Shown: in pieces, positions 18,476 through 43,124 of the stretch
How the letters are laid out: every line of letters starts with the position of its first letter
Numbering within the stretch: position 1 is the stretch's first letter
NCBI RefSeq assembly: GCF_041248615.1
Contig: NZ_CP158426.1
Length of the DNA: 64,000 bases
Direction: 5' to 3' (one strand)
DNA from: Escherichia coli
Lineage (GTDB): Bacteria > Pseudomonadota > Gammaproteobacteria > Enterobacterales > Enterobacteriaceae
Notes under the pieces: generated by a model
Told to the model about the DNA's origin: nothing
The model's database searches: none
The model's input: the letters and a program-made list of their open reading frames with translations, nothing else
Translations under genes and position numbers: made by a program

Positions 18476-18486
18476 AATAATTCCAC

Positions 18487-18512
18487 TGCCGTCGGTGACG
18501 GCAGTACTTTCG
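18487..18512 (+). terminator. Hairpin downstream of rafD
   Basis: ctgccgtc ggtg acggcag followed by a T-containing tract. Confidence 0.4.
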
Positions 18513-18523
18513 GTTCACCCGTA

Positions 18524-19054
18524 ATGAAGGAAAGCACAATGGGATTACTGGGCAGGATTAAACAACTGATAAGTGAAAATGAGAAACCGGCGGAAGTCAC
18601 CCGCGTGATGGCACCGCTGTCCGGTGAAATTGTCCCTCTGGACACGGTTCCGGATGCTGTGTTTGCCGGGAAAATAGTGGGGGATGGTATTGCTATCCGT
18701 CCTTCCGGCGGCGATACCTTGATGGCTCCTGTCAGCGGCACTATCGGTAAAATACTGGAGACAAACCACGCGTTTTCCATCCGCACCGACAGTGGCACTG
18801 AACTGTTCGTGCACTTCGGTATTAACACAGTTGACCTCAGGGGAGAGGGTTTCCGGCGTATTGCCCAGGAAGGCCAGCTGATCAGCACCGGTGACCCCGT
18901 CATCGGGTTTGACCTTGCGTTACTTCAGCAGAAAGCACAGTCCACGCTGACACCGGTGATTGTGGCGGACTCTGACCGTGTCCAGGAGATAACCCTGTTC
19001 TCCGGCCCGGTCATCGCCGGAGAAACACCGGTTTTTGATATCAGCAGCCAGTAA
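18524..19054 (+). CDS. PTS EIIA-Glc (Crr-like) domain protein
   Basis: 176 aa with EIIA-Glc-type sequence (DAVFAGKIVGDGIAI...FVHFGINTVDL). Confidence 0.6.
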   Translation: MKESTMGLLGRIKQLISENEKPAEVTRVMAPLSGEIVPLDTVPDAVFAGKIVGDGIAIRPSGGDTLMAPVSGTIGKILETNHAFSIRTDSGTELFVHFGINTVDLRGEGFRRIAQEGQLISTGDPVIGFDLALLQQKAQSTLTPVIVADSDRVQEITLFSGPVIAGETPVFDISSQ

Positions 19055-19324
19055 GCGCCATGAGTGACAATATCGCCAGCGGGCAGCTGGTATCAGGGAA
19101 AGCCGCACATCTGGCCTGGTGCGGGCTGGTAGCCCTGCATCTGGCCCGCCGGGATGGCCGGATTGCGTCAAAAATCCAGGAAAACCTGTTTCTAAACCGC
19201 TGGCGGAGCACAGCACTGAAACAGCACCGTTTTCCCCGCACATATCAGAGCCCTGCAGAGTGAAAGCGGGGCGAAAGATATCCGCAGCAGGCTGGAGTAT
19301 CTGTGGCAGGCCTGCTCTGGTGAT

Positions 19325-19636
19325 GTGTCGGTACAGACTGACCTGTTCCGCCTGACATTCGCCCTGGAAACCATCAGGGAGCAGGGCTGGTGCTGGCGGA
19401 TACTGAGCGACCGGAAATGGGAGGGGCGTAATGTCGTGGTTCCGAACGGGGATGCCGGCAGCTTTTATCTTTCCCGCTCACGTCTTGAGGCGGCATTTGA
19501 TTATCAGGGGAGGTTGCTGCATCCCCTGACCGGCGATGTGTCTGCCCTCGCTGCCCTGCTCCGGAATGCGGGTTGGTATCCAATTCCAGCCGGAACCACG
19601 GATATGGCGATGTTTGAGCTGTCTGTCATCCGCTGA
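19325..19636 (+). CDS. Hypothetical 103-aa protein
   Basis: ORF only; no motif recognised. Confidence 0.3.
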   Translation: MSVQTDLFRLTFALETIREQGWCWRILSDRKWEGRNVVVPNGDAGSFYLSRSRLEAAFDYQGRLLHPLTGDVSALAALLRNAGWYPIPAGTTDMAMFELSVIR

Positions 19637-19665
19637 ATATGACTGATGAAAATCATGGAGTATGA

Positions 19666-20592
19666 ATGAGTACAGTAAAAGTATGGGGTCTCGGTGATGC
19701 CGTGGTGGATTTATTACCGGAGAAGCCGGGCACGCTGTTGCAGTGCCCTGGTGGTGCGCCTGCCAATGTTGCCGTGGGCGTGGCCCGACTGGGGGGCCTG
19801 AGCGGGTTTGTCGGGTGTGTGGGGGATGACCCTTTCGGGCGTTTTATGCGCAAAACCCTGGCTGATGAGGGTGTGGACACGGCGTATATGCATACCGACC
19901 CTCTGTACCGGACTTCCACAGTGGTGGTGTCGCTGGTGCCGGGTGGTGAACGAACCTTCACATTTATGGTGCGCCCTTCGGCAGACCTTTTCCTTACCCC
20001 TGATGATTTACCGCCCTTTCGTGCCGGTGAATGGCTGCATACCTGCTCCAATGCCCTGAGTGCAGAGCCCTGCCGCAGCGCCACGTTTCAGGCCATGGAG
20101 AACATCCGGCAGGCTGGCGGCAGGGTCAGCTTTGACCCCAACATCCGGACTGACCTGTGGCAGAGCACATCGCAACTGCGTGAGTGTCTGCACCGGGCGC
20201 TCATGCTGGCGGATGTGGCAAAGGTATCGGAAGAGGAACTGTTCTTTATCAGCGGTGAACAGGATGTCCGGAAGGGAACCGATGTTCTGGCATCACATTA
20301 TCCCCTGGCACTGCTGCTGGTAACCCAAGGAAAGGATGGCGTGATGGCTCGCTGGCAGGGAAAAAACCTGTACTTCCCGGCAACACCGGTGGTGAGTGTG
20401 GACACGACCGGTGCCGGTGACGCCTTCGTGGCAGGTCTGCTGGCAGCGCTGGCGGCAGAGGGGATGCCCTCCGGTGAGCAGGCACTCGCATCCGTCATCG
20501 AACAGGCCCAGCGCTGTGGTGCGCTTGCCACGACAGCAAAAGGTGCCATGACAGCGTTACCCCGTCGCCAGGATTTACTGAAACACCCCTGA
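19666..20592 (+). CDS. Fructokinase (PfkB/ribokinase family, ScrK/CscK-like)
   Basis: 308 aa; N-terminal VWGLGDAVVDLLPE and C-terminal DTTGAGDAF PfkB signature. Confidence 0.8.
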   Translation: MSTVKVWGLGDAVVDLLPEKPGTLLQCPGGAPANVAVGVARLGGLSGFVGCVGDDPFGRFMRKTLADEGVDTAYMHTDPLYRTSTVVVSLVPGGERTFTFMVRPSADLFLTPDDLPPFRAGEWLHTCSNALSAEPCRSATFQAMENIRQAGGRVSFDPNIRTDLWQSTSQLRECLHRALMLADVAKVSEEELFFISGEQDVRKGTDVLASHYPLALLLVTQGKDGVMARWQGKNLYFPATPVVSVDTTGAGDAFVAGLLAALAAEGMPSGEQALASVIEQAQRCGALATTAKGAMTALPRRQDLLKHP

Positions 20593-20640
20593 CCGTTTCC
20601 TGCCCGTAACCGTTGTGCACGTCATTTTTGTTGCGGGTGA

Positions 20641-22188
<1,548 letters not shown>

Positions 22189-22193
22189 ACACT

Positions 22194-22219
22194 AACGCTC
22201 CCGGTGTACCGGGAGCGTT
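22194..22219 (+). terminator. Perfect hairpin 6 bp after the glycoporin stop
   Basis: aacgctcccgg tgta ccgggagcgtt. Confidence 0.4.
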
Positions 22220-22424
22220 GCCGGTCATTGTCCCGTAAATGAAAGCGTTGTTCATCAATAGGAATTTAAACCCCAAAAAGATTAAAAAAACACCTGAAAA
22301 AGGGCGCTTTCTCAGCATCGTCACACATGCCATAACTTCGACGTCATCAATTAAATGGACTTCATTGATTGATACCGGGTATCGTGACGGGAGCCTGTTT
22401 AGGATTCTGTGTAAATGCCTTTTC

Positions 22425-23204
22425 TCAGAAGTGACCGTCCAGGCGGTCACCGAACTCGATAATAAAGCGGCTCATTGCCATTCGCCAGTCCTTCAACGGC
22501 ATCGTCCATTTCTGGGACGCAGACTGGATTGCCAGCCACACCACTTTTTTCACCGAGTCGTCTGTCGGGAACACTTTACGCTTTTTGATCGCATGGCGGA
22601 TCACGCTGTTTAGCGACTCGATGGCATTCGTCGTATAGATCACTTTGCGGATGTCCGTTGGATAAGCGAAGAACGTGGCAAGATTCGGCCAGTTAGCCTG
22701 CCAGCTTCGGCTTATCTGAGGATAGCGACTGTCCCAGGCCGCAGCGAACGCTTCCAGTGCCTGCTGACCTGCCTCTTCCGTGGGAGCTTGATAAATCGCT
22801 TTCAGGTCGCGAGTGACGGCCTTGTAGTCCTTCCATGACACGAAGCGCAGGCTGTTGCGCACCATATGCACGATGCATAACTGGATGCGGGCCTTCGGAT
22901 ATACTGTGTTGATGGCATCCGGGAAGCCTTTCAGGCCATCCACACAGGCGATGAGGATATCGTTCAGACCGCGGTTTTTCAGTTCAGTCAGCACATTGAG
23001 CCAGAACTTCGCCCCTTCATTTTCGGCCAGCCACATACCCAGCAGTTCCTTCTGACCTTCGATATTGATGCCCAGTGCCAGGAACACCGATTTGTTGATG
23101 ACGCGACTGTCCTGCCGAACTTTCAGGACGATACAGTCAAGATAAACAATGGGGTAAACAGCATCCAGTGGTCTGTTTTGCCATTCTACAACCTGCTCCA
23201 TCAC
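22425..23204 (-). pseudogene. IS256-family transposase, N-terminally truncated (about 140 aa missing) by insertion of the IS629-like element
   Basis: 259-aa ORF matching the C-terminal two thirds of IS256-family transposases; upstream end abuts the IS629-like inverted repeat at about 23218. Confidence 0.7.
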
Positions 23205-23271: not shown

Positions 23272-23598
23272 ATGACTAAAAATACTCGTTTTTCCCCCGA
23301 AGTCCGTCAGAGGGCGATTCGTATGGTTCTGGAAAGTCAGGGCGAATATGACTCACAGTGGGCGGCAATTTGTTCCATTGCCCCAAAGATTGGCTGTACA
23401 CCGGAGACTCTGCGTGTCTGGGTGCGCCAGCATGAGCGGGATACCGGAGGCGGTGATGGCGGGCTCACCACCGCTGAACGTCAGCGTCTGAAAGAGCTGG
23501 AACGTGAAAATCGTGAACTGCGCCGCAGTAACGATATCCTTCGCCAGGCTTCCGCTTATTTTGCGAAGGTGGAGTTCGACCGCCTCTGGAAAAAGTGA
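23272..23598 (+). CDS. IS629-like OrfA (HTH transposase subunit)
   Basis: 108 aa [21 protein letters not shown]...; leucine-zipper region; overlaps orfB in the -1 frame. Confidence 0.8.
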
Positions 23599-24012
23599 TG
23601 CCACTGCTGGATAAGCTGCGTAAGCTGTACGGGGTCGGACCGGTATGCAGTGAACTACATATTGCCCCGTCAACGTATTACCACTGTCAGCAACAGCGAC
23701 ATCATCCTGATAAACGCAGTGCCCGTGCGCAGCGCGATGACTGGCTGAAGAAAGAGATACTGCGCGTATACGATGGGAATCATCAGGTATACGGTGTGCG
23801 TAAAGTCTGGCGTCAGTTGTTACGGGAAGGAATCAGGGTAGCCAGATGTACAGTGGCGCGCCTCATGGCGGTTATGGGACTTGCCGGTGTTCTCCGGGGT
23901 AAAAAGGTCCGCACTACCGTCAGCCGGAAAGCCGTTGCCGCAGGCGACCGCGTAAACCGTCAGTTTGTGGCAGAACGTCCTGACCAGTTGTGGGTGGCTG
24001 ATTTTACTTACG
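23595..24012 (+). pseudogene. IS629-like OrfB, interrupted after ...QLWVADFTY by a group II intron
   Basis: Transposase homology ends at 24012; intron consensus GTGTG follows at 24013. Confidence 0.7.
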
Positions 24013-26769
<2,757 letters not shown>

Positions 26770-26837
26770 GTGGGTGGTGGTGTTAAGAGCATGCGGTCTG
26801 CGTAAGAGAAAGGGGTGAGCATTTTACGCTGCTGTTG

Positions 26838-26940
26838 CTGCCGGATGCGGCTCGCGCCTTATCCGGCCTATAAATGAGCGTGAAACGCAGGCCTACAAAT
26901 GAGTGTGAAATGTAGGCCTGATAAGCGAAGCGCCATCAGG
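26838..26940. repeat. Cluster of REP-like palindromic units
   Basis: gccggatgcggctcgcgccttatccggcctat and gcaggcctacaaatgagtgtgaaatgtaggcctgataagcgaagcgccatcagg. Confidence 0.6.
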
Positions 26941-27142
26941 AATAAGTGCCAGGTATTACACGCGGAAGTAGCGTGGTGGAATCAACGCGGAAAAGGCGTC
27001 GAACTTCTTCACCATCTTTTTCCAGAACAACATAACAACAATCCTCGATTTGAAACATCGGCGCTATTTTAGTCAGCGCCGACAAATCGTAAAGCCTGTC
27101 GCCTTGTTCCGTTTCTGGGGTGGTATAAACCTTTTTGGTCAC
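26936..27142 (-). CDS. Possible small protein (68 aa) downstream of the lactate permease gene
   Basis: ORF only; hydrophilic composition; could be non-coding. Confidence 0.25.
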   Translation of the reverse strand: MTKKVYTTPETEQGDRLYDLSALTKIAPMFQIEDCCYVVLEKDGEEVRRLFRVDSTTLLPRVIPGTYS

Positions 27143-27190
27143 TGTGTCGTCAAATACGATTGCCGCGAATTTGACGGGGTTGACAATGGC

Positions 27191-28744
27191 TTACGCCATA
27201 AACCAGTAATAAAAGAGACCGACTTTCAGGCCAAGGATCACAATGTAGGCACAGCAGTATTTCATGGTGCCAGACATGATCTGATTGGCCTGACCGTCCA
27301 TTTTGGTGGCAGAAACCGCGATGGCGATGCTTTGCGGCGAAATCATTTTGCCCCCCGTAGCGCCAGAGGTATTGGCCGCCGCCAGCCAGTTGGGATCGAT
27401 ATGTAACTTGCTGGCAGCTATGGTTTGCAGCTTGCCAAACAGAATGTTCGAGTTGGTATCGCTGCCGGTAACGAACGTGCCCAGCGCGCCAATCACCGGG
27501 GCGAGGAAGACGTACGAGCTGCCGGTCAGATCGACAATCGACTGCGCCAGTGTGGAGATAATCCCGCTGAGATCCATCACCGTGGCCAGCGCGACGATCG
27601 CCATAATTGCCACGATAGAGTTTTTAAGCTGGAAAATCGTTTTGATAAATACTTCCAGCATCCCGCGTGCGGACGCTCCCTGAATAAAACCGCCGATAAT
27701 GGTCGCAAAGATAATCAGCATCCCTGGTGTGGTCACCCATTCAACTTTCAGTGCCATCGTTTTGCCGTCAGCCAACGTGAAATGCAGCACCGAAGCCAGT
27801 TGGGATGCCGCGCCTTTTATTGTCGGAAACAGCGGCGAACACAGCAGGATAAACACAAAAATAAACAGATAGATAGAGCCCACGCGGAACAACACTTTTG
27901 CCGAGCGCGGCGTGGTTTCGCGGGTATGGCTGACCTCAATGCGCCACTCTGGATCGGTTTTCCCTTTGCGCAGGCGACTGACCATCGCCACGGCAAACAG
28001 GCTGACCAGGCTACCGGCAAAAGCGGGTAATTCCGCGCCAAGATGGATGGCGACAAAATATTGCGGAATCAGCGTGGAAATGCCGCAAATCAACGTGATC
28101 AGAAATACGCCGCGAATGGCTTTCAGGCCACCGCCAATAATGCAGACAATCACAAACGGCAGCAGGATATTAAACAGCGCGAGCTGCAAAATAATGGTTC
28201 CGCCTAAGGTATAAACCGGCAGATTAACCTGCTCTGCCAGAATAGAAACCGGGATCCCAACCGCGCCAAATGCGGTCGGAACGGTATTTGCTACGAGGGA
28301 AGCAATCGCCGCCTTCAACGGGTTGAATCCCAGCGCAATGAGAATACCGATCGGAATAGCGACCGCCGTGCCATAGCCCGCAGCGGCTTCAAGAAATCCA
28401 CCAAAACACCATGAAATCAGCAGCACCTGAATACGCTTATCTTCGCTAATGCTGGCGAGAATATCGCGCAGAATATCCAGCGCTTTGGTCGCCTGCATGA
28501 CGTTATAACTGAAGATAGCGCCGAGGATAACAATTACGATCGGCCATAGTCCCTTCAGTGCACCATAGCCTATCGCGGCTTTCAAATTTTGTACGGGCAT
28601 TTCCCAGAATATTGCCGATAGTGCAGCGGTGAATACCAAAGAGATCAGTACGGAATAATGGATGGGCATTTTTAATTTCAGTATTAAAAATACCATCAGC
28701 AGCAAAGGAGAGAGTGCCAGAGCAAACATTAAATATTCGTGCAT
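27191..28744 (-). CDS. Lactate permease (LctP family)
   Basis: 517-aa polytopic membrane protein with LctP-family conserved segments; divergent from the dld-like gene. Confidence 0.8.
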   Translation of the reverse strand: MHEYLMFALALSPLLLMVFLILKLKMPIHYSVLISLVFTAALSAIFWEMPVQNLKAAIGYGALKGLWPIVIVILGAIFSYNVMQATKALDILRDILASISEDKRIQVLLISWCFGGFLEAAAGYGTAVAIPIGILIALGFNPLKAAIASLVANTVPTAFGAVGIPVSILAEQVNLPVYTLGGTIILQLALFNILLPFVIVCIIGGGLKAIRGVFLITLICGISTLIPQYFVAIHLGAELPAFAGSLVSLFAVAMVSRLRKGKTDPEWRIEVSHTRETTPRSAKVLFRVGSIYLFIFVFILLCSPLFPTIKGAASQLASVLHFTLADGKTMALKVEWVTTPGMLIIFATIIGGFIQGASARGMLEVFIKTIFQLKNSIVAIMAIVALATVMDLSGIISTLAQSIVDLTGSSYVFLAPVIGALGTFVTGSDTNSNILFGKLQTIAASKLHIDPNWLAAANTSGATGGKMISPQSIAIAVSATKMDGQANQIMSGTMKYCCAYIVILGLKVGLFYYWFMA

Positions 28745-29174
28745 TACAATTCCCGATTTACTTTTTTAGACTGAGCTATATTTATGGGGAAGGAAGCTAC
28801 CTGAATAATAAAATAAAAAATGCTAACTGAATCGCTTCAGTGAAATAAAGTTATAAAGGTTAATAATTGTATAAATAATGTTATTTTTTTATTAAATATG
28901 AATAACCACTAAATATTACAACACCCATTAGAGTTAATCATTAATAGGTATGGGATGATCTTTGCAATAAATAAGTGTTTTGGCATCCCCTCAAAGGGCG
29001 AGGTATGAATTATATGGCGGTGGTAATTTCATTAAAAAATGTGAGCGGTACCGAAAGAAATAAAATGGGGTATTGCATGTGGATATTGATTGAGGGAATA
29101 TTCTGCTTTGTCATACAAATGAACTTATAGCCATTTTCACTGGCCCTGATATAAGGAGCGGAGAGCCGCCCTCC

Positions 29175-30872
29175 ATGAAACATACTGATAATAAGACCTT
29201 TTTGACGACTCTTACCCAATTGGTTGGCCCTGCTCATATCCTCACCGAACCGTCAAAAACTGCGTGTTACCGTAAGGGATTCCGCTCGGGTCAGGGTGAT
29301 GCTCTGGCGGTGGTTATCCCCGGCTCTTTGCTTGAACTCTGGAAAGTCCTCAGCGCCTGCGTTGAGGCTGATAAAATAATCCTGATGCAGGCGTCGAACA
29401 CAGGCCTGACCGAGGGTTCGACGCCAAATGGTAATGACTACGACCGCGAGATCGTCATTATCAGCACGCTGCGGCTGGACAGTCTGCATGTGCTGGATGA
29501 GGGCAAGCAGGTGCTGGCTTATCCGGGCACCACGCTGTACTCGCTGGAAAGGGCGCTGAAGCCGTTTGGCCGTGAGCCGCATTCGGTGATCGGCTCTTCG
29601 TGCATCGGCGCGTCGGTTATCGGCGGTATCTGTAATAACTCGGGCGGTTCTCTGGTCCAGCGAGGCCCGGCTTACACCGAGATGTCGCTGTTTGCCCGCA
29701 TTGATGAACAGGGACGCTTGCAGCTGGTCAATCACCTTGGCATTGAGCTAGGTCAGACGCCAGAGCAAATCCTTGCCCGGCTGGATAACAATGTGATTGA
29801 AGCCGCGCTCGTCAACCATGACGGACGTCACGCGCACGATCACGACTATGTTAGCCGCGTGCGGGACATCAATGCCGACACGCCAGCACGTTACAACGCT
29901 GACCCGGATCGCCTGTTTGAATCCTCTGGCTGCGCGGGCAAGTTAGCGGTGTTTGCCGTACGTCTGGATACCTTTGAAGCCGAGAAGAACCAGCAGGTCT
30001 TTTATATCGGTACCAATCAGACTGATGTCCTGACTGAGATTCGCCGCCACATCCTGGCGAATTTTACAAACCTGCCGGTTGCTGGGGAGTATATGCACCG
30101 CGATATCTATGATATTGCAGAGAAATACAGCAAAGATACCTTCCTGATGATCGACAAACTTGGCACGGACAAAATGCCGTTCTTCTTCAACCTGAAGGGG
30201 CGTACCGAGGCCATACTTGAGAAGGTGAAGATCTTTCGCCCGCACTTTACTGACCGCGCGATGCAGGCTTTTAGCCATCTGTTCCCGAGCCATCTCCCGG
30301 CGCGGATGAAGACCTGGCGCGATAACTATGAACACCATCTGATGTTGAAAATGTCCGGCGAGGGTGTGGCCGAAGCCCAGGCATGGTTAACGGACTATTT
30401 TAAATCGGCCGAGGGCGCGTTCTTTACCTGTACCGCGGAAGAGGGCAGTAAGGCGTTTCTGCATCGTTTTGCCGCCGCGGGTGCTGCCATTCGTTATCAG
30501 GCCGTTCATTCTGACGAGGTTGAGGATATTCTCGCGCTGGATATTGCATTACGCCGCAATGATACCGAATGGTATGAGTATTTACCTGCGGAAATTGACA
30601 GTCAGTTGGTGCATAAACTCTATTACGGCCATTTTATGTGCCATGTATTCCATCAGGATTATATCGTTAAAAAAGGCGTAGATGCCCACGCGTTAAAAGA
30701 ACAGATGCTGGAATTACTGCGCCAACGCGGAGCGCAATATCCGGCGGAACACAATGTCGGCCATCTGTATAAAGCGCCGGAAAATTTGGCACGTTTTTAT
30801 CAGGAAAATGATCCGACCAACACTATGAATCCAGGTATTGGTAAAACCAGCAAACATAAAAACTGGGCATGA
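29175..30872 (+). CDS. dld: FAD-dependent, quinone-linked D-lactate dehydrogenase (Dld-like)
   Basis: 565 aa, collinear with E. coli Dld (DNK.FL..L..LVG..H.LT.P.KTA.YRKGFRSGQGDALAVV...). Confidence 0.85.
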   Translation: MKHTDNKTFLTTLTQLVGPAHILTEPSKTACYRKGFRSGQGDALAVVIPGSLLELWKVLSACVEADKIILMQASNTGLTEGSTPNGNDYDREIVIISTLRLDSLHVLDEGKQVLAYPGTTLYSLERALKPFGREPHSVIGSSCIGASVIGGICNNSGGSLVQRGPAYTEMSLFARIDEQGRLQLVNHLGIELGQTPEQILARLDNNVIEAALVNHDGRHAHDHDYVSRVRDINADTPARYNADPDRLFESSGCAGKLAVFAVRLDTFEAEKNQQVFYIGTNQTDVLTEIRRHILANFTNLPVAGEYMHRDIYDIAEKYSKDTFLMIDKLGTDKMPFFFNLKGRTEAILEKVKIFRPHFTDRAMQAFSHLFPSHLPARMKTWRDNYEHHLMLKMSGEGVAEAQAWLTDYFKSAEGAFFTCTAEEGSKAFLHRFAAAGAAIRYQAVHSDEVEDILALDIALRRNDTEWYEYLPAEIDSQLVHKLYYGHFMCHVFHQDYIVKKGVDAHALKEQMLELLRQRGAQYPAEHNVGHLYKAPENLARFYQENDPTNTMNPGIGKTSKHKNWA

Positions 30873-30946
30873 AATACGAATGAACATTTGTTTGATATCG
30901 CGATATCAAGCGCAATAAACAGAAATGAAGCAATGGAGTAGTTATT

Positions 30947-31666
30947 GTGAATGTAAATTTCTTTGTCACCTGTATTGGTGACGCACTGAAATCACGGATG
31001 GCACGAGACTCCGTATTGCTGCTGGAAAAACTGGGTTGTCGCGTTAATTTCCCCGAGAAGCAAGGGTGTTGCGGTCAGCCAGCCATCAACAGCGGTTACA
31101 TCAAAGAGGCGATCCCCGGGATGAAAAACCTGATCGCCGCGCTGGAAGACAACGACGATCCGATTATCTCCCCGGCGGGCTCCTGCACCTACGCGGTTAA
31201 AAGCTACCCGACGTATCTGGCCGATGAACCGGAATGGGCGCTGCGTGCTGAGAAAGTTTCCGCGCGTATGCAGGATCTCACCTCCTTTATCGTCAACAAA
31301 CTGGGTGTGGTGGACGTTGGTGCCAGCCTGCAGGGCCGCGCTGTGTATCATCCTTCCTGTAGCCTGACCCGCAAACTGGGAGTGAAGGAAGAGCCGCTTA
31401 CGCTGCTGAAAAACGTGCGCGGACTGGAGCTGTTGACGTTTGCCGATCAGGATACCTGTTGCGGCTTTGGCGGGACGTTCTCGGTCAAGATGGCCGAGAT
31501 ATCCGGTGAGATGGTGAAAGAGAAAGTATTACATCTGATGGACGCAAAGCCGGAATTTTTGATTGGCGCAGACGTTAGCTGCCTGCTGAACATTGGCGGT
31601 CGACTGCAACGGGAAGGCCAGCCGGTCAAAGTGATGCATATTGCTGAAGTGCTGATGAGCCGCTGA
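30947..31666 (+). CDS. lutA: Lactate utilisation protein A (YkgE-like; CCG-domain Fe-S oxidoreductase subunit)
   Basis: 239 aa with two cysteine-rich CCG motifs; collinear with K-12 YkgE. Confidence 0.85.
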   Translation: MNVNFFVTCIGDALKSRMARDSVLLLEKLGCRVNFPEKQGCCGQPAINSGYIKEAIPGMKNLIAALEDNDDPIISPAGSCTYAVKSYPTYLADEPEWALRAEKVSARMQDLTSFIVNKLGVVDVGASLQGRAVYHPSCSLTRKLGVKEEPLTLLKNVRGLELLTFADQDTCCGFGGTFSVKMAEISGEMVKEKVLHLMDAKPEFLIGADVSCLLNIGGRLQREGQPVKVMHIAEVLMSR

Positions 31667-31676
31667 GGGGAAAGAG

Positions 31677-33104
31677 ATGTCGATAAAAACCAGCGATGTA
31701 GAATTTAAACTGCGTATTCGTCAGCAGATAGAAGATCCGATTATGCGCAAAGCCGTGGCTAATGCGCAGGAGCGTATCGGCGCGAATCGGCAAAAAATGG
31801 TCGATGAGTTAGGCCACTGGGAAGAATGGCGCGATCGTGCCAGCCAGATCCGCGATCACGTTCTGAGCAACCTCGACGCTTACCTGTACCAACTCTCCGA
31901 GAAAGTGACGGAAAACGGCGGACACGTCTATTTCGCCAAAACCAAAGAAGATGCCACTCGCTACATTTTGCAGGTCGCGCAGAGTAAAAATGCGCAGAAG
32001 GTGGTGAAGTCCAAGTCGATGGTGACCGAAGAAATCGGCGTCAACCATGTGTTGCAGGATGCCGGAATCCAGGTGATCGAAACCGATCTCGGGGAATATA
32101 TCCTGCAGTTGGATCAGGATCCGCCTTCGCACGTCGTGGTTCCGGCGATTCATAAAGATCGCTACCAGATCCGCCGCGTGCTGAACGAACGTCTGGGGTA
32201 CGACGGCCCGGAAACCCCGGAAGCTATGACCTTGTTCATTCGTCAGAAGATCCGCGAGGATTTCCTCAGTGCCGAAATCGGTATTACTGGCTGTAACTTT
32301 GCCGTGGCGGAAACCGGCTCGGTGTGTCTGGTGACCAACGAAGGCAACGCGCGCATGTGCACCACGCTACCGAAAACGCACATTGCGGTGATGGGCATGG
32401 AGCGTATCGCGCCGACCTTTGCCGAGGTGGATGTGCTGATTACCATGCTGGCGCGCAGCGCCGTGGGCGCACGTCTGACGGGCTACAACACCTGGCTGAC
32501 CGGCCCGCGTGATGCGGACAACGTTGACGGACCGGAAGAGTTCCATCTGGTGATTGTCGATAACGGTCGCTCGCAGGTGCTGGGCTCAGAGTTTCGCGAT
32601 GTGCTGCGCTGCATCCGCTGCGGAGCCTGTATGAACACCTGTCCGGCGTACCGCCACATCGGCGGGCACGGCTATGGCTCTATCTATCCCGGCCCTATCG
32701 GCGCGGTGATTTCTCCGCTGCTCGGCGGCTATAAAGATTTTAAAGACCTGCCGTACGCCTGTTCTTTGTGCACGGCTTGTGACAGCGTCTGCCCGGTGCG
32801 TATTCCGTTGTCAAAACTGATCCTGCGTCATCGCCGGGTGATGGCCGAGGAGGGCATTACGCCGAAAGCCGAGCGACGGGCGATCAAGATGTTCGCCTAT
32901 GCCAATAGCCATCCGGGGCTGTGGAAAGTCGGGATGATGGCGGGCGCGCATGCGGCGAGCTGGTTTATCAATGGCGGCAAAACCCCGCTCAAGATTGGCG
33001 CGATTGGTGACTGGATGGAGGCGCGCGATCTGCCTGATGCTGACGGCGAGAGCTTCCGCAGCTGGTTTAAGAAACATCAGGCGCAGGAGAAAAAGAATGG
33101 ATAA
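31677..33104 (+). CDS. lutB: Lactate utilisation protein B (YkgF-like; 4Fe-4S ferredoxin-type with LUD domain)
   Basis: 475 aa; CxxCxxCxxxCP motifs (CIRCGACMNTCP, CSLCTACDSVCP). Confidence 0.85.
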   Translation: MSIKTSDVEFKLRIRQQIEDPIMRKAVANAQERIGANRQKMVDELGHWEEWRDRASQIRDHVLSNLDAYLYQLSEKVTENGGHVYFAKTKEDATRYILQVAQSKNAQKVVKSKSMVTEEIGVNHVLQDAGIQVIETDLGEYILQLDQDPPSHVVVPAIHKDRYQIRRVLNERLGYDGPETPEAMTLFIRQKIREDFLSAEIGITGCNFAVAETGSVCLVTNEGNARMCTTLPKTHIAVMGMERIAPTFAEVDVLITMLARSAVGARLTGYNTWLTGPRDADNVDGPEEFHLVIVDNGRSQVLGSEFRDVLRCIRCGACMNTCPAYRHIGGHGYGSIYPGPIGAVISPLLGGYKDFKDLPYACSLCTACDSVCPVRIPLSKLILRHRRVMAEEGITPKAERRAIKMFAYANSHPGLWKVGMMAGAHAASWFINGGKTPLKIGAIGDWMEARDLPDADGESFRSWFKKHQAQEKKNG

Positions 33105-33792
33105 CCGTACCGCGTTTTTAAACACCATCGCCCAGGCGCTGGGTCGCCCGCTGCGCTTCGAACCGCAAGCGGATGCCGCACCGGTTAACAACTATGCCAA
33201 CGAGCGCCTGACCGAGCTTAGCCCCGAGCAGCGCTGCTCTGCGTTTATCCAGTTTGCCAGCGAAGTGATGCTGGCCCGCTGCGAACTGACCAGCGAGGAC
33301 CAGGCCGCAGACGCGGCACTGCGCCTGTGCGAAGAATTGGGTCAGCAGCCGGTGGTGCTGAGCGGCGACAGCCGGCTGGTGGAGCTGGGCATCACCGAAC
33401 GCTTGCAGCAGGAATGCAACGCCGTGGTCTGGGATCCGGCGCGTGGTAGCGAAAATATTACCCAGGCCGAGCAGGCGAAAGTCGGCGTGGTGTATGCCGA
33501 ATATGGCCTGACCGAGTCCGGCGGCGTGGTGCTGTTTTCCGCACCGGAGCGCGGGCGCTCCCTGAGCCTGTTGCCGGAGTCCTCTATTTTCGTGCTGCGT
33601 AAAAGCACCATCCTGCCGCGCGTGGCGCAGCTGGCAGAAAAACTGCATCAGAAAGCACAGGCCGGTGAGCGTATGCCATCGTGCATTAATATCATCAGTG
33701 GACCCAGCTCGACGGCGGATATTGAGCTTATCAAGGTGGTTGGGGTGCATGGTCCGGTGAAGGCGGTATATCTGATTATTGAGGATTGTTGA
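33097..33792 (+). CDS. lutC: Lactate utilisation protein C (YkgG-like; LUD domain); ORF-track start 32950 is an upstream extension
   Basis: ATG at 33097 preceded by aggagaaaaag RBS and overlapping lutB stop; product MDNRTAFLNTIAQALG... Confidence 0.8.
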   Translation: MDNRTAFLNTIAQALGRPLRFEPQADAAPVNNYANERLTELSPEQRCSAFIQFASEVMLARCELTSEDQAADAALRLCEELGQQPVVLSGDSRLVELGITERLQQECNAVVWDPARGSENITQAEQAKVGVVYAEYGLTESGGVVLFSAPERGRSLSLLPESSIFVLRKSTILPRVAQLAEKLHQKAQAGERMPSCINIISGPSSTADIELIKVVGVHGPVKAVYLIIEDC

Positions 33793-33841
33793 GGCAGGAT
33801 GGAAAACCGCTCTGGCGCTGTGGGCCAGAGCGGTATCAACG

Positions 33842-34300
33842 TTATGCAATCATGCTGATGATCAACACGATTATCAGGCCAACCACGGAGTTTACCAGCT
33901 CCAGCAGACCCCAGGTTTTCAGCGTATCCTTCACCGACAGATCAAAGTAGCCTTTGAACAGCCAGAACGAAGCATCGTTGATATGGGTCAGCGTGTTGGA
34001 GCCAGCCGCTGTTGCCAGCACCAGCAACGCCGGGTCGACGCCCACCAGTTGACCGGTTGCCGGGTCGAGGATTGCTGCGCTAATAATCCTCGCCGCCGTC
34101 ATGGCTGAGACCACGCCCTGACCCGTTGCCAGACGGATCAGCACGGTTATCAACCACGCCATGATGTAGGGAGAAATATTGCCGTGTGACATCAGCATGC
34201 CGATGGTATCGCCGATGCCGGTATCGATAATGGTTTGCTTCAGTACGCCGCCTGCCACTGACTGCCGGAGCAGGGACTGCGCTGACTCTGTAAATCCGCC
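33842..34300 (-). pseudogene. GntP-family permease, C-terminal remnant only (about 150 aa)
   Basis: GntP-like C-terminal segments (IDTGIGD...[22 protein letters not shown]...); homology lost upstream of about 34300; the ORF continues spuriously into IS5. Confidence 0.5.
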
Positions 34301-34436
34301 GCTCTGTACGTTGGGATTGTTAATCCGAGTAACTAAGTAACACGCTATACCTTGACTCCTTATGCTTACATGCTTGCACATCGTTACGGCACAAAATTCA
34401 ACTGTGGCAAAGCAAGTGCGCTGTTGCGTTCTCTTG

Positions 34437-35632
<1,196 letters not shown>

Positions 35633-38600
35633 CTAAATCTTTCCACCCACCCCCTTAAATTTTTCAATAAATGCGCTAATTTTTTGAAAAACAGTCTGTT
35701 TTTTCGTTTTATATTGCGGATTTAAAGGACTGAGTCTGGGCAGTGTCTCGTTTAATTCCGTGCCATTTTCGGTGGCGTATTCGCGTTTTAAAGATGTGCG
35801 AATATAGCGTTTCGCCGCCTCTTCATTGAGATTTTCTTCTTTGATCAAGGCTTCTGCTTCACGTTGCTGTTCGCGTTGAGCAAACGTAAAGAATGCGTCA
35901 ATGATGCTGGCTTTGTCCGGTAAATCATCCAGGTTCGTTTGCTGAATAAAATCGACCACCAGGCCCTCTTTAGCACGGTTCCCCAGGCTTGAACGAATTA
36001 AGCGTTTGACCTCTTCGATCATTTCGCTCTTACCTTTGTTTTGTCTGTTGTGCTCGAAAATCAGACCAAGGATATAATCCAGGTTTATTTCCTGAGATTT
36101 CAGCAAATCGACCTCAAAAACTACGTCATCCCAGTCAGTGGTTGATTTCTCTTTTTTCTCAGCTTCTTTCTCACGGCGCTGCCAGTCGCGAATATCGTTA
36201 TAGGCAGAACGATAATCCTGAATCTTGCGATCAGCAGGGAGACGAATTGTTTGCAATTCAGCGAGCTTTTCATCATCCACATAATGTTCTGCTTTGAATT
36301 TTTCTACTGCAACAGGATCGCTAAGATCGATTTGTTGCAGGGCTTTCAGCGTGGCAAATTCATCATAGTTTTGCAGGATGTTCTCGGCACGCAGGTATTC
36401 ACCAAACAGTTTAACGAAGTCTTTCTTCTCTTTTTCACTTTCAATACTGGCAGGGTCAGGGAACCGTTGTTCCAGTTCTGCAACTACTGCCATAAAGCCG
36501 CGCTTAGCTTCACCAGTAGCAGCATCAGTAAAGCCTTCCATATACTCTGCATAACTCTTTTCTAACACTACATTTTTGGTGTTTTTGTCACCAAACAGCG
36601 TTATGGCATCGATGGTTGAGCGTTCCAGATCGCGGAAAGTGACGATATTACCGAAGGTTTTAGTTGCATCATAAATACGGTTGGTGCGGGAAAATGCCTG
36701 CATCAGGCCGTGAAAACGCAAGTTTTTATCGACGAATAGCGTGTTCAATGTTGGAGCATCGAAACCGGTTAAAAACATCCCCACGACAATTAACAGATCG
36801 ATATCCTGATTTTTAACCCGTTGGGCTAAATCACGATAGTAGTTCTGAAAACCCTTACTGTCGGTGCTGAAGTTAGTTTTAAAATAGCTGTTATACTCAC
36901 GAATTGCAGCGTCAAGAAACTCTTTAGCACTGCTGTCCATTGCGCTGGTATCAAAAGTTTCATCGGATATTTCACCAATCGCATTTTGTTCTTCATTAGC
37001 GGCAAAGGAGAAGATTGTCGCAACACGCAGTGGTTTACAGGTAGTAGATTTATTAGCGGCTTCCTCTTGTAACCGTTTAAACGTCGCGTAATAGGCTTTC
37101 GCGGCATCCACGCTGCTTACTGCCAGCATGGCATTAAAACCTTTGGAGCCAGGGAAAGTACGGTGGGTTTTCTGGCGGAAATTATTCAGAATATATTGCG
37201 TGATTTCCTGAATACGCATGGGATGAAGAAACGCCTGCTGATTTTCAGCCGCACTTAGTTTTTTCTCGTCAGTTTCTGTCTCTAAAGACTTAAACTGTGG
37301 TCGCACATCGTTGTAGTCCACCTTGAATTTGAGCACTTTTTCGTCACGAATCGCATCGGTAATTACATACGAATGCAATTCACGACCAAATACGCTGGCG
37401 GTTGTTTCTGAGCCTAAGGCGTTTTCCGGGAAAATAGGGGTGCCGGTAAAACCAAACTGATAATAGCGTTTGAATTTCTTCTTCAGGTTTTTCTGCGCTT
37501 CTCCAAACTGGCTGCGGTGGCATTCATCAAATATAAACACCACTTGCTGATTATATACAGGCAGGTCGCTTTCTGCTTTCATCAGGTTATTGAGTTTCTG
37601 AATAGTAGTGACGATAATTTTGTTATCGTCCTTATCCAGATTTCGTTTAAGGCCTGCGGTATTTTCCGAGCCGTTGACGCTGTCTGGCGAAAAACGCTGA
37701 TATTCCTTCATGGTCTGGTAATCGAGGTCTTTCCTGTCGACCACAAAGAAGACTTTATCAATAAAGTCCAGCTCTGTTGCCAGACGCGCGGCTTTAAAGC
37801 TGGTGAGGGTTTTACCAGAACCGGTAGTGTGCCAGATATACCCACCGCTTTCCGGTTTTGACCAGTTCTTCGCTGTAAAGGAACTCTTAATTTTCCACAG
37901 AATGCGCTCGGTGGCGGCAATCTGGTACGGTCGCATCACCAGTAGCGTCTGACTACTGTCAAAAACGCTGTAGTTCACCAGAACATTCAGCAGAGTATGT
38001 TTCTGGAAAAAGGTAGCGGTAAAGTCTTTGAGGTCTTTAATCAGCGTGTTGTCTGATTTCGCCCAGTTCATGGTGAAGTCAAAACTGTTTTTATCGCGCT
38101 TTGTTGTGTTGGCAAAATAACGGGTATCGGTGCCGTTAGAAATGACAAACAGTTGCAGATACTTAAACAGAGAATTTTCGCTGTTAAAACTCTCTTTGCT
38201 GTAACGGTGTATCTGGTTGAACGCTTCACGAATCGCCACGCCGCGCTTTTTCAGTTCGATTTGCACCAGCGGCAAGCCATTAACCAGGATCGTGACGTCA
38301 TAACGGTTAGCGTGAGAGCCTGCCTGTTCAAACTGCTGGATAATCTGCACTTTATTGCGCATGAGATTCTTTTTATCTATCAAATAGATGTTCTCAAGAC
38401 GCCCGTCGTCAAAAATAAAGTCGCAGATGTAGTCGATATGAATTTTACGGGTTTTATCCAGGATGCCATCGCTCGGATTATCCAGAAACTGCTCCGTGAA
38501 ACGCCGCCACTCGCTGTCATTAAACACCACACCATTGAGGTTCTGAAGCTGTTCCCGAACGTTGGCCAGCATCGCTGACTGTGATTTTACGGGTATAAAT

Positions 38601-38749
38601 TCATAGCCCTGATTCCGCAGGTCCTGAATCAGTTCACGTTCCAGGTCCGATTCGCTCTGGTAGCTGTCGCCTGTTTGCTCAGCTTTGATGTACTTATCAA
38701 GAACGATAAAGTTATTGGATTCAGCAATGGTGTGTGTTTGATGAGTCAT
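35633..38749 (-). CDS. hsdR: Type I restriction enzyme R subunit (EcoR124-like, Type IC)
   Basis: 1038 aa; Walker A TTGSGKT, DECH box ([10 protein letters not shown]), helicase motifs; same length as EcoR124I HsdR (from memory). Confidence 0.9.
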
Positions 38750-38870
38750 AGCGCATCCTTTGTGCCGTCTGGCAAGGGTCGGAAGGGAGTTAATGGTGAC
38801 TTCCGGCGTGTAAAAAATAGTCTATATACAGACCGGATGTTAAGGTGATCCGGTCTGTAATAATGGTCAA

Positions 38871-40064
38871 TTAATTACTGACAGTTTCAGGTTTCGGGAA
38901 ACTGAACAGTAAATCACGGTAGTACTCGTATTGTTTCTGGCGTAACTCGATTTCACGCGGGAGACCTTCGGTGATGGAGTTGGTCAGGGTGTCGAATTTA
39001 TCGAGAATAGATACAATTCGTTTTTGTTCAGCTATGCATGGAATTGGGATTCGGAACTGTCTAAGATTTGTCAGATTGAGCATTCCATAGTTACGCATTT
39101 CAGATTTAAGTGTATTGTATAAATTTGTCAAGAAATAGAATATGAATTTATCAGTAATAATATTTTCTTTAGTGGACTTTATGCTGGCTATATTTTGATT
39201 GGTTGTTGCTTCAAACTCAAGAAATGCAGTTTTAAATATAGTTGCACCAACAAGTGCGATTAAAGTGGTATTCTTAGGAAGAAGTTTTGCAGTGGATTTT
39301 TTTAATCCTAGCTCGCTTATAAAATCTTTCGCAAAATAAACAGATTCATTATTACATGATTCCGATTTTAACCATGGAATTGACCCATTATCCCAGTATT
39401 CTGCTTTAGATTTTGAGGGGGTTCCTCCAGCGCAAATATGAAATAACTCTTCATTTCCCAAAGTTGTCCAATTAACCTCACCCTCTTTAAAACTCAACAA
39501 CTGGTCGCGATAGTAGTTGTACTGTTTTTTACGCATGTTAAGCTCAGCGGTAAGCTCAGCGGTAAGTGCAGTAAATTTATCCAGAATCCGAACGATTTCA
39601 GACTGGATGGCAAGGGACTTTTCCGGGTTGTCCGGACTAGGAATGGGAACTTTAAATCCTTCCAGCATGGGTTTTCTTATCGAAATGGCGGTAGCACCCA
39701 CACTTTTTGTCAAGATGTACTGCTTAAAGCTAGATGACATGAAGTAATACAAAAACTTCGTGTCTACGGCATTAGTTGTGATACGAATTCTATACGCCCT
39801 TTGATGTAGAGCATATTTCCCCTCAACATAGTGAAATATGTCGCCAATTCCACCTTCACCAGGAATGACTATTGCTACCTCATCAAATTCAAAGGTATCT
39901 GACTTCAAGATATTCTTTGAGCGAACATAGAATGGATAAATTCCATTTTCGCTTTCATCCTGACGATTTGAACTTCCAGTACCGATATCTGCCATAGAAC
40001 CCAATGTTACCCACTCAACCTCAACCCCATCCAACAGTTTTTCCAGATAGCTCAGCTCGCTCAT
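38871..40064 (-). CDS. hsdS: Type I restriction-modification specificity subunit (Type IC; two target-recognition domains with a TAEL-repeat central region)
   Basis: 397 aa; conserved N-terminus [18 protein letters not shown] and central ...[33 protein letters not shown]; second conserved repeat ...[16 protein letters not shown]... Confidence 0.85.
39541..39564. repeat. 12-bp tandem repeat x2 (agctcagcggta) inside hsdS, encoding TAEL-TAEL
   Basis: Two perfect adjacent 12-bp units followed by a diverged third unit (agtgcagtaaat). Confidence 0.85.
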
Positions 40065-41617
40065 TTCTGCACCTCGCAGCCTTCAATTTCAGCCACAATC
40101 GCATCAATATCTTTGCGCAACTGGTCGATTTTGCTGACCGTGGTTTTCAGTTCAGCATTCAGCTCATCGATATCGATAATTTCGCGGTTATCTTTCGCTT
40201 CCACATAGCTGCTCACCGACAGGTTATAGTCATTCGCGACAACGGCTTCGAACGCGACAGATTTTGCCAGATGAGCAACATCTTCCTTGCTGGCAAATAC
40301 CTGCATAATCTGTTCGATATGGGCATCGGTCAGGATATTGTTGTTAGTCTCTTTTTTGAACAGTTCGCTGGCGTCAATAAACTGAACTTTGGTATCCGTT
40401 TTATGTTTAGACAGCACCAGAATATTTACGGCAATGGTGGTGCCAAAGAACAGGTTCGGTGCGAGTGAAATCACGGTTTCGACATAGTTATTGTCGACCA
40501 GATACTGACGGATTTTCTGCTCTGCGCCGCCACGGTAAAAAATACCCGGGAAGCAGACAATCGCAGCACGACCTTTGGCCGAAAGATAGTTCAGCGCATG
40601 TAGTACAAACGCAAAGTCAGCTTTGGATTTGGGGGCCAGAACGCCAGCCGGGGCAAAACGTTCATCGTTAATCAGCGTCGGGTCATCGCTGCCAATCCAT
40701 TTCACCGAATACGGTGGGTTAGATACGATGGCGTCAAACGGTTTTTCATCTCTGAAGTGCGGCTCAGTCAGTGTATTACCCAGCTTGATATCAAACTTGT
40801 CGTAGTTGATATTGTGCAAAAACATGTTCATACGCGCCAGGTTATAGGTCGTATGGTTGATTTCCTGACCGAAAAAGCCTTCTTCGATGATATGGTTATC
40901 AAACTGTTTTTTCGCCTGCAACAACAGTGAGCCGGAACCCGCTGCCGGGTCGTAGATTTTGTTAACGCTGGTCTGCCCGTGCATAGCCAGTTGTGCAATC
41001 AGCCTGGAGACGTGCTGCGGTGTAAAGAACTCACCGCCTGACTTACCGGCATTTGCGGCATAGTTAGAAATCAGGAACTCATAGGCATCGCCGAACAGGT
41101 CAATCTGATGTTCGTTAAAGTCGCCAAGCTTTAACCCTTCAACCCCTTTCAGAACCGCAGCCAGGCGGGCATTTTTATCCTTAACGGTGTTACCCAGGCG
41201 GTTACTGGTGGTATCGAAATCAGCAAACAAACCTTTGATGTCTGCTTCTGAAGGGTAGCCGTAAGCAGAACTTTCGATAGCAACGAAGATGCTGTTTAAA
41301 TCTGCATTCAGTCTGTCATTGGTATTTGCTTTCGCAGCTACGTTGCAGAAAAGCTGACTGGGGTAGATGAAGTAGCCTTTGGTTCTGATGGCATCGTCTT
41401 TAATGTCATCAGTAATTACGCTGTCATCCAGTTTCGCATAACAGATACTGTCATCACCGGCTTCAATATAACTGGAAAAATTTTCGCTGATAAAACGGTA
41501 GAAAAGTGCGCCCAGAACGTATTGCTTAAAATCCCATCCGTCAACAGAACCTCTGACATCATTGGCAATTTGCCATATCTGGCGGTGCAGTTCTGCTCGT
41601 TGTTGAATACTTGTCAT
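40061..41617 (-). CDS. hsdM: Type I restriction-modification N6-adenine DNA methyltransferase subunit
   Basis: 518 aa; motif [11 protein letters not shown], motif IV NPPY (SNPPYSVKW); stop overlaps hsdS start. Confidence 0.9.
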
Positions 41618-42753: not shown

Positions 42754-42871
42754 ACACTCTGCCAGGGGAAATGCCTGATTACATTGCGTTAACCAACTGA
42801 AAACATGACACAAACACCTCATACCCACCTCTTTCTCTTGCGTGACTGCCTTGCTGTTAATAGAATAAAAC

Positions 42872-42907
42872 GATCGATAAAACAGGTATCGATCGTTGTA
42901 ATCGATC
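42872..42907. promoter_or_regulatory. Three GATC sites in the agn43 regulatory region (Dam/OxyR phase-variation switch)
   Basis: GATC at 42872, 42891 and 42904 within aacGATCgataaaacaggtatcGATCgttgtaatcGATCgtt, about 220 bp upstream of the antigen 43 start. Confidence 0.6.
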
Positions 42908-43124
42908 GTTTATGGTGGTTAATGGTCTGCGAAAAGGCAGCTGAATCTCTTCATCATGCAGAACGGAATTGCACACAACGGACTGATACTTCTCTGGCGG
43001 ATGAGAGAGGGGAAGCATTTATGTCCGGGAAAAACCACTTTATCTGACCATGCTGTTTTGTACCTGCCGGTATCCACATTTGTGGGTACCGGCTTTTTTA
43101 TTCACCCTCTGTAAGGAAAAGCTG

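Follow-up and report, generated by a model that had tools for sequence, protein, structure and literature searches.

The Escherichia coli stretch analysed here (the window, 64,000 nucleotides) carries, within an island at the tRNA gene ileX, a lactate permease gene beside genes for the oxidation of both lactate isomers. The locus raises the question of whether these genes belong to the resident chromosome or were captured, from which donor they came and what they may provide to the recipient. The block is very probably a 7.49-kb excerpt of the core chromosome of the Citrobacter freundii complex, now travelling on islands and plasmids as passenger DNA linked to an ISEc52-like element, with predicted functions in lactate use.

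Limits, content and Citrobacter collinearity of the block

Homology to several Citrobacter species begins at 26767-26772 and stops at 34255, and the biologically meaningful limits of the block are 26767-34255, compared with the 26770-34300 assigned earlier. Within them lie a REP pair, lctP, a divergent dld-lutA-lutB-lutC group and the 3′ remnant of gntP (Table 1), and five of the five genes lctP, dld, lutA, lutB and lutC are intact. The permease, the divergent Dld-like gene, lutABC, the REP cluster and the GntP-family remnant are all present at the positions given in the first-pass annotation. The PGAP annotation of E. coli NRZ14408 (NZ_LT599825.1) has the identical gene set for the block. The lutB and lutC reading frames overlap by 8 nt. 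The REP units are inverted around a duplicated 25-bp tandem linker, with four matches to the REP core pattern in the window against 0.44 expected.

Table 1. Coordinates of the lactate block, its flanks and the surrounding island in the window
Feature	Position	Strand	Basis or remark
Partial tRNA copy, 47 nt	2707-2753		adjoins the integrase gene
Integrase	2950-4266
Group II intron, 3′ domain	26196-26282
ISEc52-like IS3-family element, 3′ part (left boundary)	26283-26769	+	IS3 transposase C-terminal fragment, NF033516
Citrobacter-derived block (cassette proper)	26767-34255		single 7495-bp alignment to CP056293.1 (L096), 97.5% identity
REP pair (BIME-like), downstream of lctP	26838-26941		inverted REP cores 26858-26871 and 26912-26925
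lctP, LctP-family lactate permease, 517 aa	27191-28744	-	TIGR00795
Divergent lctP/dld control region, AT-rich	28745-29174		Citrobacter comparison
YieP-operator-like palindrome ATTTGTATGACAAAG, 55 bp upstream of the dld ATG	29106-29120	-	1 mismatch in 15 to the K-12 ykgE site
dld, predicted respiratory FAD-dependent D-lactate dehydrogenase, 565 aa	29175-30872	+	NF008387
lutA (ykgE-type), Fe-S/CCG subunit	30947-31666	+	two CCG domains
lutB (ykgF-type), 4Fe-4S subunit	31677-33104	+	TIGR00273
lutC (ykgG-type)	33097-33792	+	LUD domain, E = 7e-30
gntP 3′ remnant, 137 codons	33842-34255	-	GntP model positions 310-446 of 447
181-bp stretch from gntP breakpoint to ISKpn26	34256-34436		not homologous to the Citrobacter locus; common to strain CX21
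ISKpn26 (IS5 family), nearest right-hand mobile element	34437-35636	+	IS5 transposase; annotated ISKpn26
ileX	51124-51199

The whole block aligns to chromosome CP056293.1 (L096) as one segment of 7495 bp with 97.5% identity and two gap openings, and identity stays at 96-99% throughout when features are compared one by one. This chromosome is assigned to Citrobacter because its flanks are 96-97% identical to C. portucalensis and because of its tyrosine phenol-lyase neighbourhood. The block is bordered there on one side by full-length gntP-uxuA-uxuB and on the other by a pdxY-like gene, an aromatic amino-acid permease gene and tyrosine phenol-lyase. LctP is 99% identical in protein to its counterparts in C. 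portucalensis, C. braakii and C. youngae. The gntP remnant shares 99% protein identity with full-length Citrobacter gntP, its breakpoint being visible against Citrobacter L005, and the REP pair occupies the equivalent position in L005 and L096; both features are collinear with the Citrobacter core chromosome. The genes lctP, dld and lutABC were evidently already adjacent in the donor and, judging from this collinearity, moved as a single piece, with no assembly in the island.

The control region is 98.4% identical to that of the dld-bearing L096 and about 68% identical to that of Citrobacter species without dld. Insertion of dld into a Citrobacter lctP/lutABC locus was the first idea, most Citrobacter species being without dld, and was rejected. 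Those species still have the final ~70 bp of the dld open reading frame, which argues that dld was lost there and that the cassette, L096 and C. gillenii have kept the intact form.

At the left boundary, the ISEc52-like element is split upstream by the group II intron. E. coli S1-INA-02-B and the H15 plasmid have the same junction between this element and the lactate block, and on K. pneumoniae p69-1 the element is intact and annotated as ISEc52. At the right, ISKpn26 gives a 1200-bp match to another ISKpn26 copy, with its inverted repeat beginning at 34437, and a plasmid variant has no IS at this junction. A composite transposon, with the same IS at both ends and target-site duplications, was considered and rejected, since the left element belongs to the IS3 family and the right one to the IS5 family, and since the right breakpoints vary between variants. 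The block probably became joined to the ISEc52-like element and now travels as passenger DNA.

Predicted functions and control

Gene identities were judged against the cut-offs of curated HMMs, all of which were passed. LctP scores 406 bits against TIGR00795 (cut-off 341) over residues 4-509, a full-length family match, and contains Pfam Lactate_perm (PF02652); its matches to the models of E. coli LldP and GlcA are partial and low-scoring. Its linkage to lutABC is conserved in more than 30 enterobacterial loci. Family membership and this linkage suggest lactate transport, with some uncertainty in the substrate because family members can take up other 2-oxo/2-hydroxy acids, such as pyruvate in S. 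aureus (PMC12632267).

Dld is an equivalog-level match to NF008387 (1041 bits, cut-off 391; profile positions 4-567 of 570), with the Pfam domains FAD_binding_4 and Lact-deh-memb for FAD binding and membrane association, and is 86% identical to E. coli Dld without gaps. LutA has two CCG domains and 94.6% protein identity to K-12 YkgE, LutB scores 760 bits against TIGR00273 (cut-off 445) with two CxxCxxCxxxC motifs and 94.7% identity to YkgF, and LutC has a LUD domain and 85.7% identity to YkgG. The set thus has the make-up of a LutABC/YkgEFG/LldEFG complex, namely the A-B-C order, CCG in A, LUD with two 4Fe-4S motifs in B and LUD in C.

These assignments suggest a short pathway. Lactate would enter through LctP by proton symport, D-lactate would be converted to pyruvate by Dld, a peripheral-membrane flavoenzyme, and L-lactate to pyruvate by the LutABC iron-sulfur complex, with electrons from both passing to the respiratory chain. 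E. coli YkgEFG behaves, with nitrate, as a respiratory L-lactate dehydrogenase, whose D-lactate-specific counterpart is Dld (PMC9701030); the LutABC of the cassette is likewise predicted to oxidise L-lactate and feed the respiratory chain. The self-contained D/L-lactate pathway proposed in the first-pass annotation is therefore a sound prediction from family membership. The outcome would be a further, permease-linked route for respiration of both lactate isomers, alongside the lldPRD, dld and ykgEFG genes of the host.

In K-12, ykgE is repressed by YieP (PMC7567609, PMC7642389), for which the motif atTTGTaTGAcaAAT has been published (PMC7642389). The palindrome ATTTGTATGACAAAG agrees, at the level of sequence, with a YieP-regulon operator of the atTTGTaTGAcaAAT type near a promoter. 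It is the sole match in the 64 kb at up to two mismatches, and its 13-mer core is kept upstream of ykgE in K-12 and, at the equivalent place, in all of the Citrobacter loci. The cassette contains no regulator gene. YieP would act here as it does on the native ykgEFG, as a conserved chromosomal GntR-family repressor with its operator in the dld-lutABC promoter region. Because the cassette combines this operator with the absence of a regulator of its own, the recipient's YieP probably represses and releases dld and lutABC, which may be co-transcribed.

Other control signals were also sought. A consensus sigma-70 scan revealed no strong promoter beside the YieP site, and the consensus sigma-70 and terminator scan gave fewer sites than in shuffled controls, which makes it uninformative. 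The search for FadR/GntR operators (TGGTNNNACCA, up to one mismatch) returned 30 matches against 24 expected, none of them in the control region; the 3′ end of the dld gene contains a perfect TGGTNNNACCA match (30839-30849), which lacks conservation in Citrobacter and was rejected as chance. In the two non-coding stretches, scans yielded three mismatches at best for FNR and CRP, and for ArcA and NarL one ArcA match with four mismatches and two NarL heptamers with one mismatch each, on which no claim is made. An operator-like 18-bp perfect palindrome between dld and lutA, TTGATATCGCGATATCAA (30892-30909), was also set aside; its conservation stops at the C. freundii complex, with no copy in C. 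gillenii or K-12.

Distribution, spread and rival origins

The cassette occurs in 105 of 5426 complete E. coli genomes (~2%) and on 142 plasmids, mostly conjugative plasmids of Klebsiella, the genus that accounts for 124 of the 206 matching plasmid records. Its E. coli contexts comprise the ileX island, a tRNA-Phe island (strain CX21), an IS-rich region beside pga/dgcT and a P1-like plasmid. Cassette plasmids often carry metal-resistance genes too. The present host element is the 48-kb ileX island, in which the order is lut-ISKpn26-hsdRSM; the tRNA gene, the partial direct repeat, the integrase and the patchy presence (105/5426) are those of cargo in a tRNA-linked island.

Lactate respiration aids the expansion of Enterobacteriaceae in the inflamed gut (PMC9701030). 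For this reason, a transferable unit with a permease and the two stereospecific dehydrogenases could influence how E. coli and Klebsiella colonise their hosts. The cassette might be a regulator-free "plug-in" for any enterobacterial host by way of the family-wide YieP, spread by selection for D-/L-lactate respiration and so a transferable colonisation factor; this is a tentative proposal, to which we give a modest chance of being correct. If it holds, the spread on conjugative Klebsiella plasmids and on E. coli islands from poultry, pigs and humans would reflect selection in inflamed or lactate-rich niches, with D- and L-lactate derived from the host or the microbiota.

It seems unlikely that the cassette is an inert hitch-hiker between IS elements, unexpressed or without benefit, carried beside selected cargo such as plasmid metal resistance or the island restriction-modification genes. 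Several points lend this view some plausibility: the host has its own lldPRD, dld and ykgEFG, mutants in ykgEFG and dld showed no gut fitness or colonisation defect in one mouse colitis model (PMC9701030), and the authors describing pFec10 could not say what would drive the acquisition of another ykgEFG (PMC7984374). Low basal expression would also be expected if YieP represses the module as it does ykgE. However, none of the five reading frames is disrupted in any copy inspected, across three host genera and variants with 1-2% DNA divergence, the control region including the operator is conserved, and the cassette has been retained on 142 plasmids. As far as the evidence extends, the cassette is a redundant accessory metabolic module of well-known enzyme families.

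The presence of REP elements, typical of enterobacterial core chromosomes, and a G+C content of 0.48-0.59, which is not clearly atypical, would be compatible with a segment of the E. coli core at ileX, lost since from most strains. This reading is extremely improbable, given that the cassette is found in only ~2% of complete genomes, lies inside an island with ileX at one end and, beside the integrase gene, a 47-nt partial tRNA repeat at the other, has IS ends on its flanks, and recurs at tRNA-Phe, beside pga and on plasmids. The first-pass annotation had treated the block as island cargo and would have yielded to a finding that it is the only copy and lies in the same ileX context in island-free strains. 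Low prevalence, several unrelated contexts and plasmid copies are the opposite of that pattern; the cargo assignment is upheld and the core reading refuted.

The source genome has two places for dld and two for lutABC, in agreement with the second dld copy suspected earlier and adding a second ykgEFG. That the island copy arose within the genome, from native E. coli dld and ykgEFG duplicated or brought together in the island, has next to no probability: the proteins are close paralogues (86-95% identical) and K-12 has both sets, at separate loci, but the reading is refuted by DNA identities of just 77% to native dld and 83% to native ykgEFG against 97.5% to a Citrobacter chromosome with the same genes already adjacent, while the permease lacks a close E. 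coli counterpart and the REP pair and gntP remnant are also collinear with Citrobacter. Of the earlier idea of a captured chromosomal block, the capture thus stands, the whole segment being collinear with the Citrobacter core, whereas the E. coli ykg and dld loci drop out as donors.

Relation to known systems

The Citrobacter-derived cassette is already on record in two genome papers, one listing it on plasmid pFec10 and the other in ST127 islands. The P1-derived IncY plasmid pFec10 of E. coli Fec10 carries a lactate utilisation gene cluster (PMC7984374) with the same gene set and order (LctP, Dld and YkgEFG homologues). Its homologues show the same relations to K-12 as those here (Dld >85%, YkgE 94%), and neither a donor genus nor a regulator was identified for that cluster (PMC7984374). 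At 98% identity, the cassette is also present on a P1-like plasmid of E. coli that has ttr and ars genes. In the plasmid variant the gntP remnant is shorter, breaking off at window-equivalent 34223, and higBA follows it, whereas the window has ISKpn26.

In ESBL E. coli ST127, a lutABC(P)/hsdMSR region lies beside intA and tRNA-Phe (PMC9769692). As in the window, lutABC and the permease are linked to a type I restriction-modification operon in a tRNA-linked island, located at tRNA-Phe in ST127 and at ileX here. That report ascribes transfer loosely to prophages and mentions neither dld nor a Citrobacter origin (PMC9769692). Beyond these papers, our analysis names the donor genus and a likely host regulator, fixes the exact limits of the captured piece and gives evidence for recombination between the island copy and the native copy.

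The enzyme families of the cassette are those of K-12 ykgEFG, dld and lldPRD (Dld 86%, YkgE/F/G 95/95/86% protein identity), and K-12 ykgE has a matching YieP operator upstream. K-12 has these genes at three separate loci, whereas the cassette is a single 7.5-kb unit. The K-12 permease LldP is distant from the LctP of the cassette, and lldPRD has its own regulator, LldR, whereas the cassette has none.

More distant systems follow the same logic. The lldP-dld-II-lldEFG cluster of Shewanella oneidensis, like the cassette, groups a permease with D- and L-lactate oxidising systems, although its D-enzyme is Dld-II, an FAD/Fe-S fusion, in contrast to the classical Dld of the cassette. Bacillus subtilis has lutABC with lutP, a permease and LutABC alone without dld, under a dedicated regulator, LutR. 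All three share the principle of a single locus for lactate uptake and respiration.

Gene content and copy number

The lactate cassette spans positions 26767-34255 of the window, which equal positions in the E. coli NRZ14408 chromosome record (NZ_LT599825.1) minus 768000. Every element listed for this region by the first-pass annotation is present, as collected in the table. The REP core pattern is enriched (4 matches against 0.44 expected from shuffled controls), and lctP, dld, lutA, lutB and lutC are unbroken in the window and in every other inspected copy. The gap from the dld stop to the lutA start contains a perfect 18-bp palindrome, TTGATATCGCGATATCAA (30892-30909), which is kept in the C. 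freundii complex and is absent from C. gillenii and from the region upstream of K-12 ykgE.

Features of the cassette, its host island and the related Citrobacter loci (window coordinates unless stated)
Feature	Position	Strand	Remarks
Partial tRNA copy	2707-2753		47 nt, diverged, 3' half; one island boundary
Integrase	2950-4266		adjoins partial tRNA copy
IS frameshift pseudoknot (ALIL)	23553-23669
Group II intron reverse transcriptase/maturase gene	24669-26192		intact
Group II intron catalytic 3' domain	26196-26282
REP pair	26838-26941		two inverted REP cores, 25-bp duplicated linker
lctP	27191-28744	-	LctP-family permease; TIGR00795, 406 bits (cut-off 341)
dld	29175-30872	+	NF008387, 1041 bits (cut-off 391)
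lutA	30947-31666		two CCG domains
lutB	31677-33104		TIGR00273, 760 bits (cut-off 445); two 4Fe-4S cysteine motifs
lutC	33097-33792		LUD domain
gntP remnant	33842-34255	-	C-terminal 137 codons, GntP gluconate permease
ileX	51124-51199		intact, anticodon CAT; other island boundary
dld deletion junction	9564-9571 of Citrobacter locus L005		same place in loci L006, L008, L025, L029

A second dld copy had been suspected, and the source genome indeed holds two dld places with a dld-only query and, with a lutABC-only query, two lutABC places. The other lutABC place is native ykgEFG, at ~83% DNA identity; the other dld place is a native copy, ~77% identical in DNA to the cassette gene and of a type that occurs in 5423 of 5426 genomes. 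Protein identities between cassette and K-12 are 86% for Dld, 94.6% for LutA, 94.7% for LutB and 85.7% for LutC. The cassette permease matches the E. coli models for LldP and GlcA only weakly and in part.

Citrobacter donor locus and the fate of dld

A search with a single genome for each species located the permease at 93-99% protein identity in C. freundii-complex chromosomes; the species bearing it include C. portucalensis, C. braakii, C. youngae, C. werkmanii and C. gillenii. In these genomes the locus reads uxuR-uxuB-uxuA-gntP, lutCBA and lctP, followed by REP elements and then by genes for a pdxY-like kinase, an aromatic amino-acid permease and tyrosine phenol-lyase. An exact permease sequence look-up led to a 4.9-Mb chromosome (CP056293.1) with the same neighbourhood, in which dld is intact between lctP and lutA. 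Its flanks are 96-97% identical to C. portucalensis, from which we infer that it is a Citrobacter chromosome.

The cassette aligns to this chromosome in a single piece of 7495 bp (97.5% identity, two gap openings). Taken feature by feature, identity is 96-99%, and the REP pair, the intergenic control region and dld all fall in this range. The block is therefore one contiguous excerpt of a Citrobacter core chromosome and did not come together in E. coli. The first-pass observation is confirmed, and its reading of a chromosomal block captured into the island is supported, with the donor corrected to Citrobacter.

Most Citrobacter species are without dld at this locus. In these, all that is left of the dld reading frame is its last ~70 bp, joined to the promoter region at end points that are identical in several species; dld has therefore been lost, by a clean deletion. 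The gene is kept in C. gillenii, on CP056293.1 and in the mobile cassette. The control regions of dld-bearing and dld-less alleles share only ~68% identity, against 95-99% for the flanking genes. Many other Enterobacterales carry a co-directional lctP-lutABC operon without dld.

Genomic settings, edges and allelic variation

Of 5426 complete E. coli genomes, only 105 (1.9%) have at least 80% of the block; it occupies several settings and also lies on plasmids, which bears out its proposed status as cargo, not core. It occurs on 142 plasmids at a coverage of at least 80%; the matching plasmid records (n = 206) include 124 from Klebsiella and 122 predicted to be conjugative. On the IncFIB/IncFII plasmid p69-1 the block has the pco cluster on one side and the ars cluster on the other, and a P1-like E. 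coli plasmid with the block also bears ttr and ars genes. In strain CX21 it directly follows the integrase gene in a tRNA-Phe island, and in strain S1-INA-02-B it sits in an IS-rich region adjoining pgaA/dgcT.

The ileX island, of ~48 kb, has an identical layout in unrelated poultry, pig and human strains: sugar-utilisation cluster, IS1414, intron-split IS3-family element, lactate block, ISKpn26, hsdRSM, GTPase gene and Ag43. Its integrase lies at the nfeF end beside the partial tRNA copy, away from intact ileX. The sugar cluster (13486-23188), upstream of the cassette, resembles a raffinose/sucrose system and encodes a LacI-type regulator, alpha-galactosidase, MFS transporter, GH32 hydrolase, crr-like EIIA, PfkB kinase and LamB-type porin. 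Directly past ISKpn26 come hsdR, hsdS and hsdM, which form a type I restriction-modification operon (35633-41617); hsdS lengths and protein accessions vary among strains sharing the layout, which suggests different specificities. An IS102 RNA family match (Rfam; 42870-43106, plus strand; 72 bits, gathering score 46) falls between the GTPase and Ag43 genes.

At the left edge, homology to Citrobacter starts at 26767-26772, right where an IS3-family element ends, and this junction is common to chromosomal and plasmid copies. The element is unbroken on p69-1, where it is annotated as ISEc52; in the window (23272-26769) and in other ileX-island strains, a group II intron divides the ISEc52-like element. 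At the right edge, gntP breaks at 34255 in the window and CX21, followed by 181 bp and ISKpn26 (34437-35636); in the plasmids and S1-INA-02-B it breaks 32 bp earlier (34223), followed by higBA. The 181-bp stretch (34256-34436), common to the window and CX21, matches neither the Citrobacter locus nor ISKpn26. Both versions must descend from a precursor with more gntP. A composite transposon does not fit the flanks of the block.

Cassette copies differ by up to ~2%, and the differences cluster in blocks, a sign of mosaic alleles. In E. coli PEC148, ~1 kb of the island lutB (~13980-14980 of its locus, equivalent to ~31790-32790 of the window) is identical to native K-12-type ykgF, and the remaining sequence matches the cassette. 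This tract is a product of gene conversion between native and acquired paralogues and shows that they recombine.

Predicted function, regulation and relation to known clusters

By family membership, LctP would import lactate, Dld would convert D-lactate and LutABC L-lactate to pyruvate, and both would pass electrons to the respiratory chain. E. coli Dld is specific for D-lactate, and YkgEFG acts as a respiratory L-lactate dehydrogenase with nitrate as acceptor (PMC9701030).

No regulator gene is present in the cassette or adjoins the locus in Citrobacter. An operator-like sequence, ATTTGTATGACAAAG, lies at 29106-29120 (minus-strand reading), 55 bases upstream of the dld start; it has one mismatch to the palindrome that precedes K-12 ykgE, and no other site in the 64-kb window comes within two mismatches of that palindrome. 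Its 13-base core is invariant and identically positioned in all Citrobacter loci, and versions altered at one or two positions precede lctP or lutA in Kosakonia, Proteus, Pragia and Leminorella. The sequence equals the YieP motif atTTGTaTGAcaAAT (PMC7642389). YieP was identified as the repressor that occupies the ykgE promoter (PMC7567609), its deletion raises ykgEFG about tenfold (PMC7642389), and it is conserved across Enterobacteriaceae (PMC11340327). From this motif match, the recipient's own YieP is likely to control the incoming module.

The pFec10 description reports a 'lactate utilization gene cluster' made up of LctP, Dld and a further copy of ykgEFG, whose reason for acquisition its authors call unknown (PMC7984374). 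For ST127, lutABC with a permease, together with hsdMSR, is listed next to intA and tRNA-Phe among lineage-specific genes that many other sequence types also have (PMC9769692). The excerpts of both descriptions name neither a donor nor a regulator. The window shows a lut-hsd linkage matching the 'lutABC/hsdMSR region' of the ST127 study (PMC9769692). The cassette as a whole exemplifies an accessory module that is already known and whose enzymes belong to well-characterised families.
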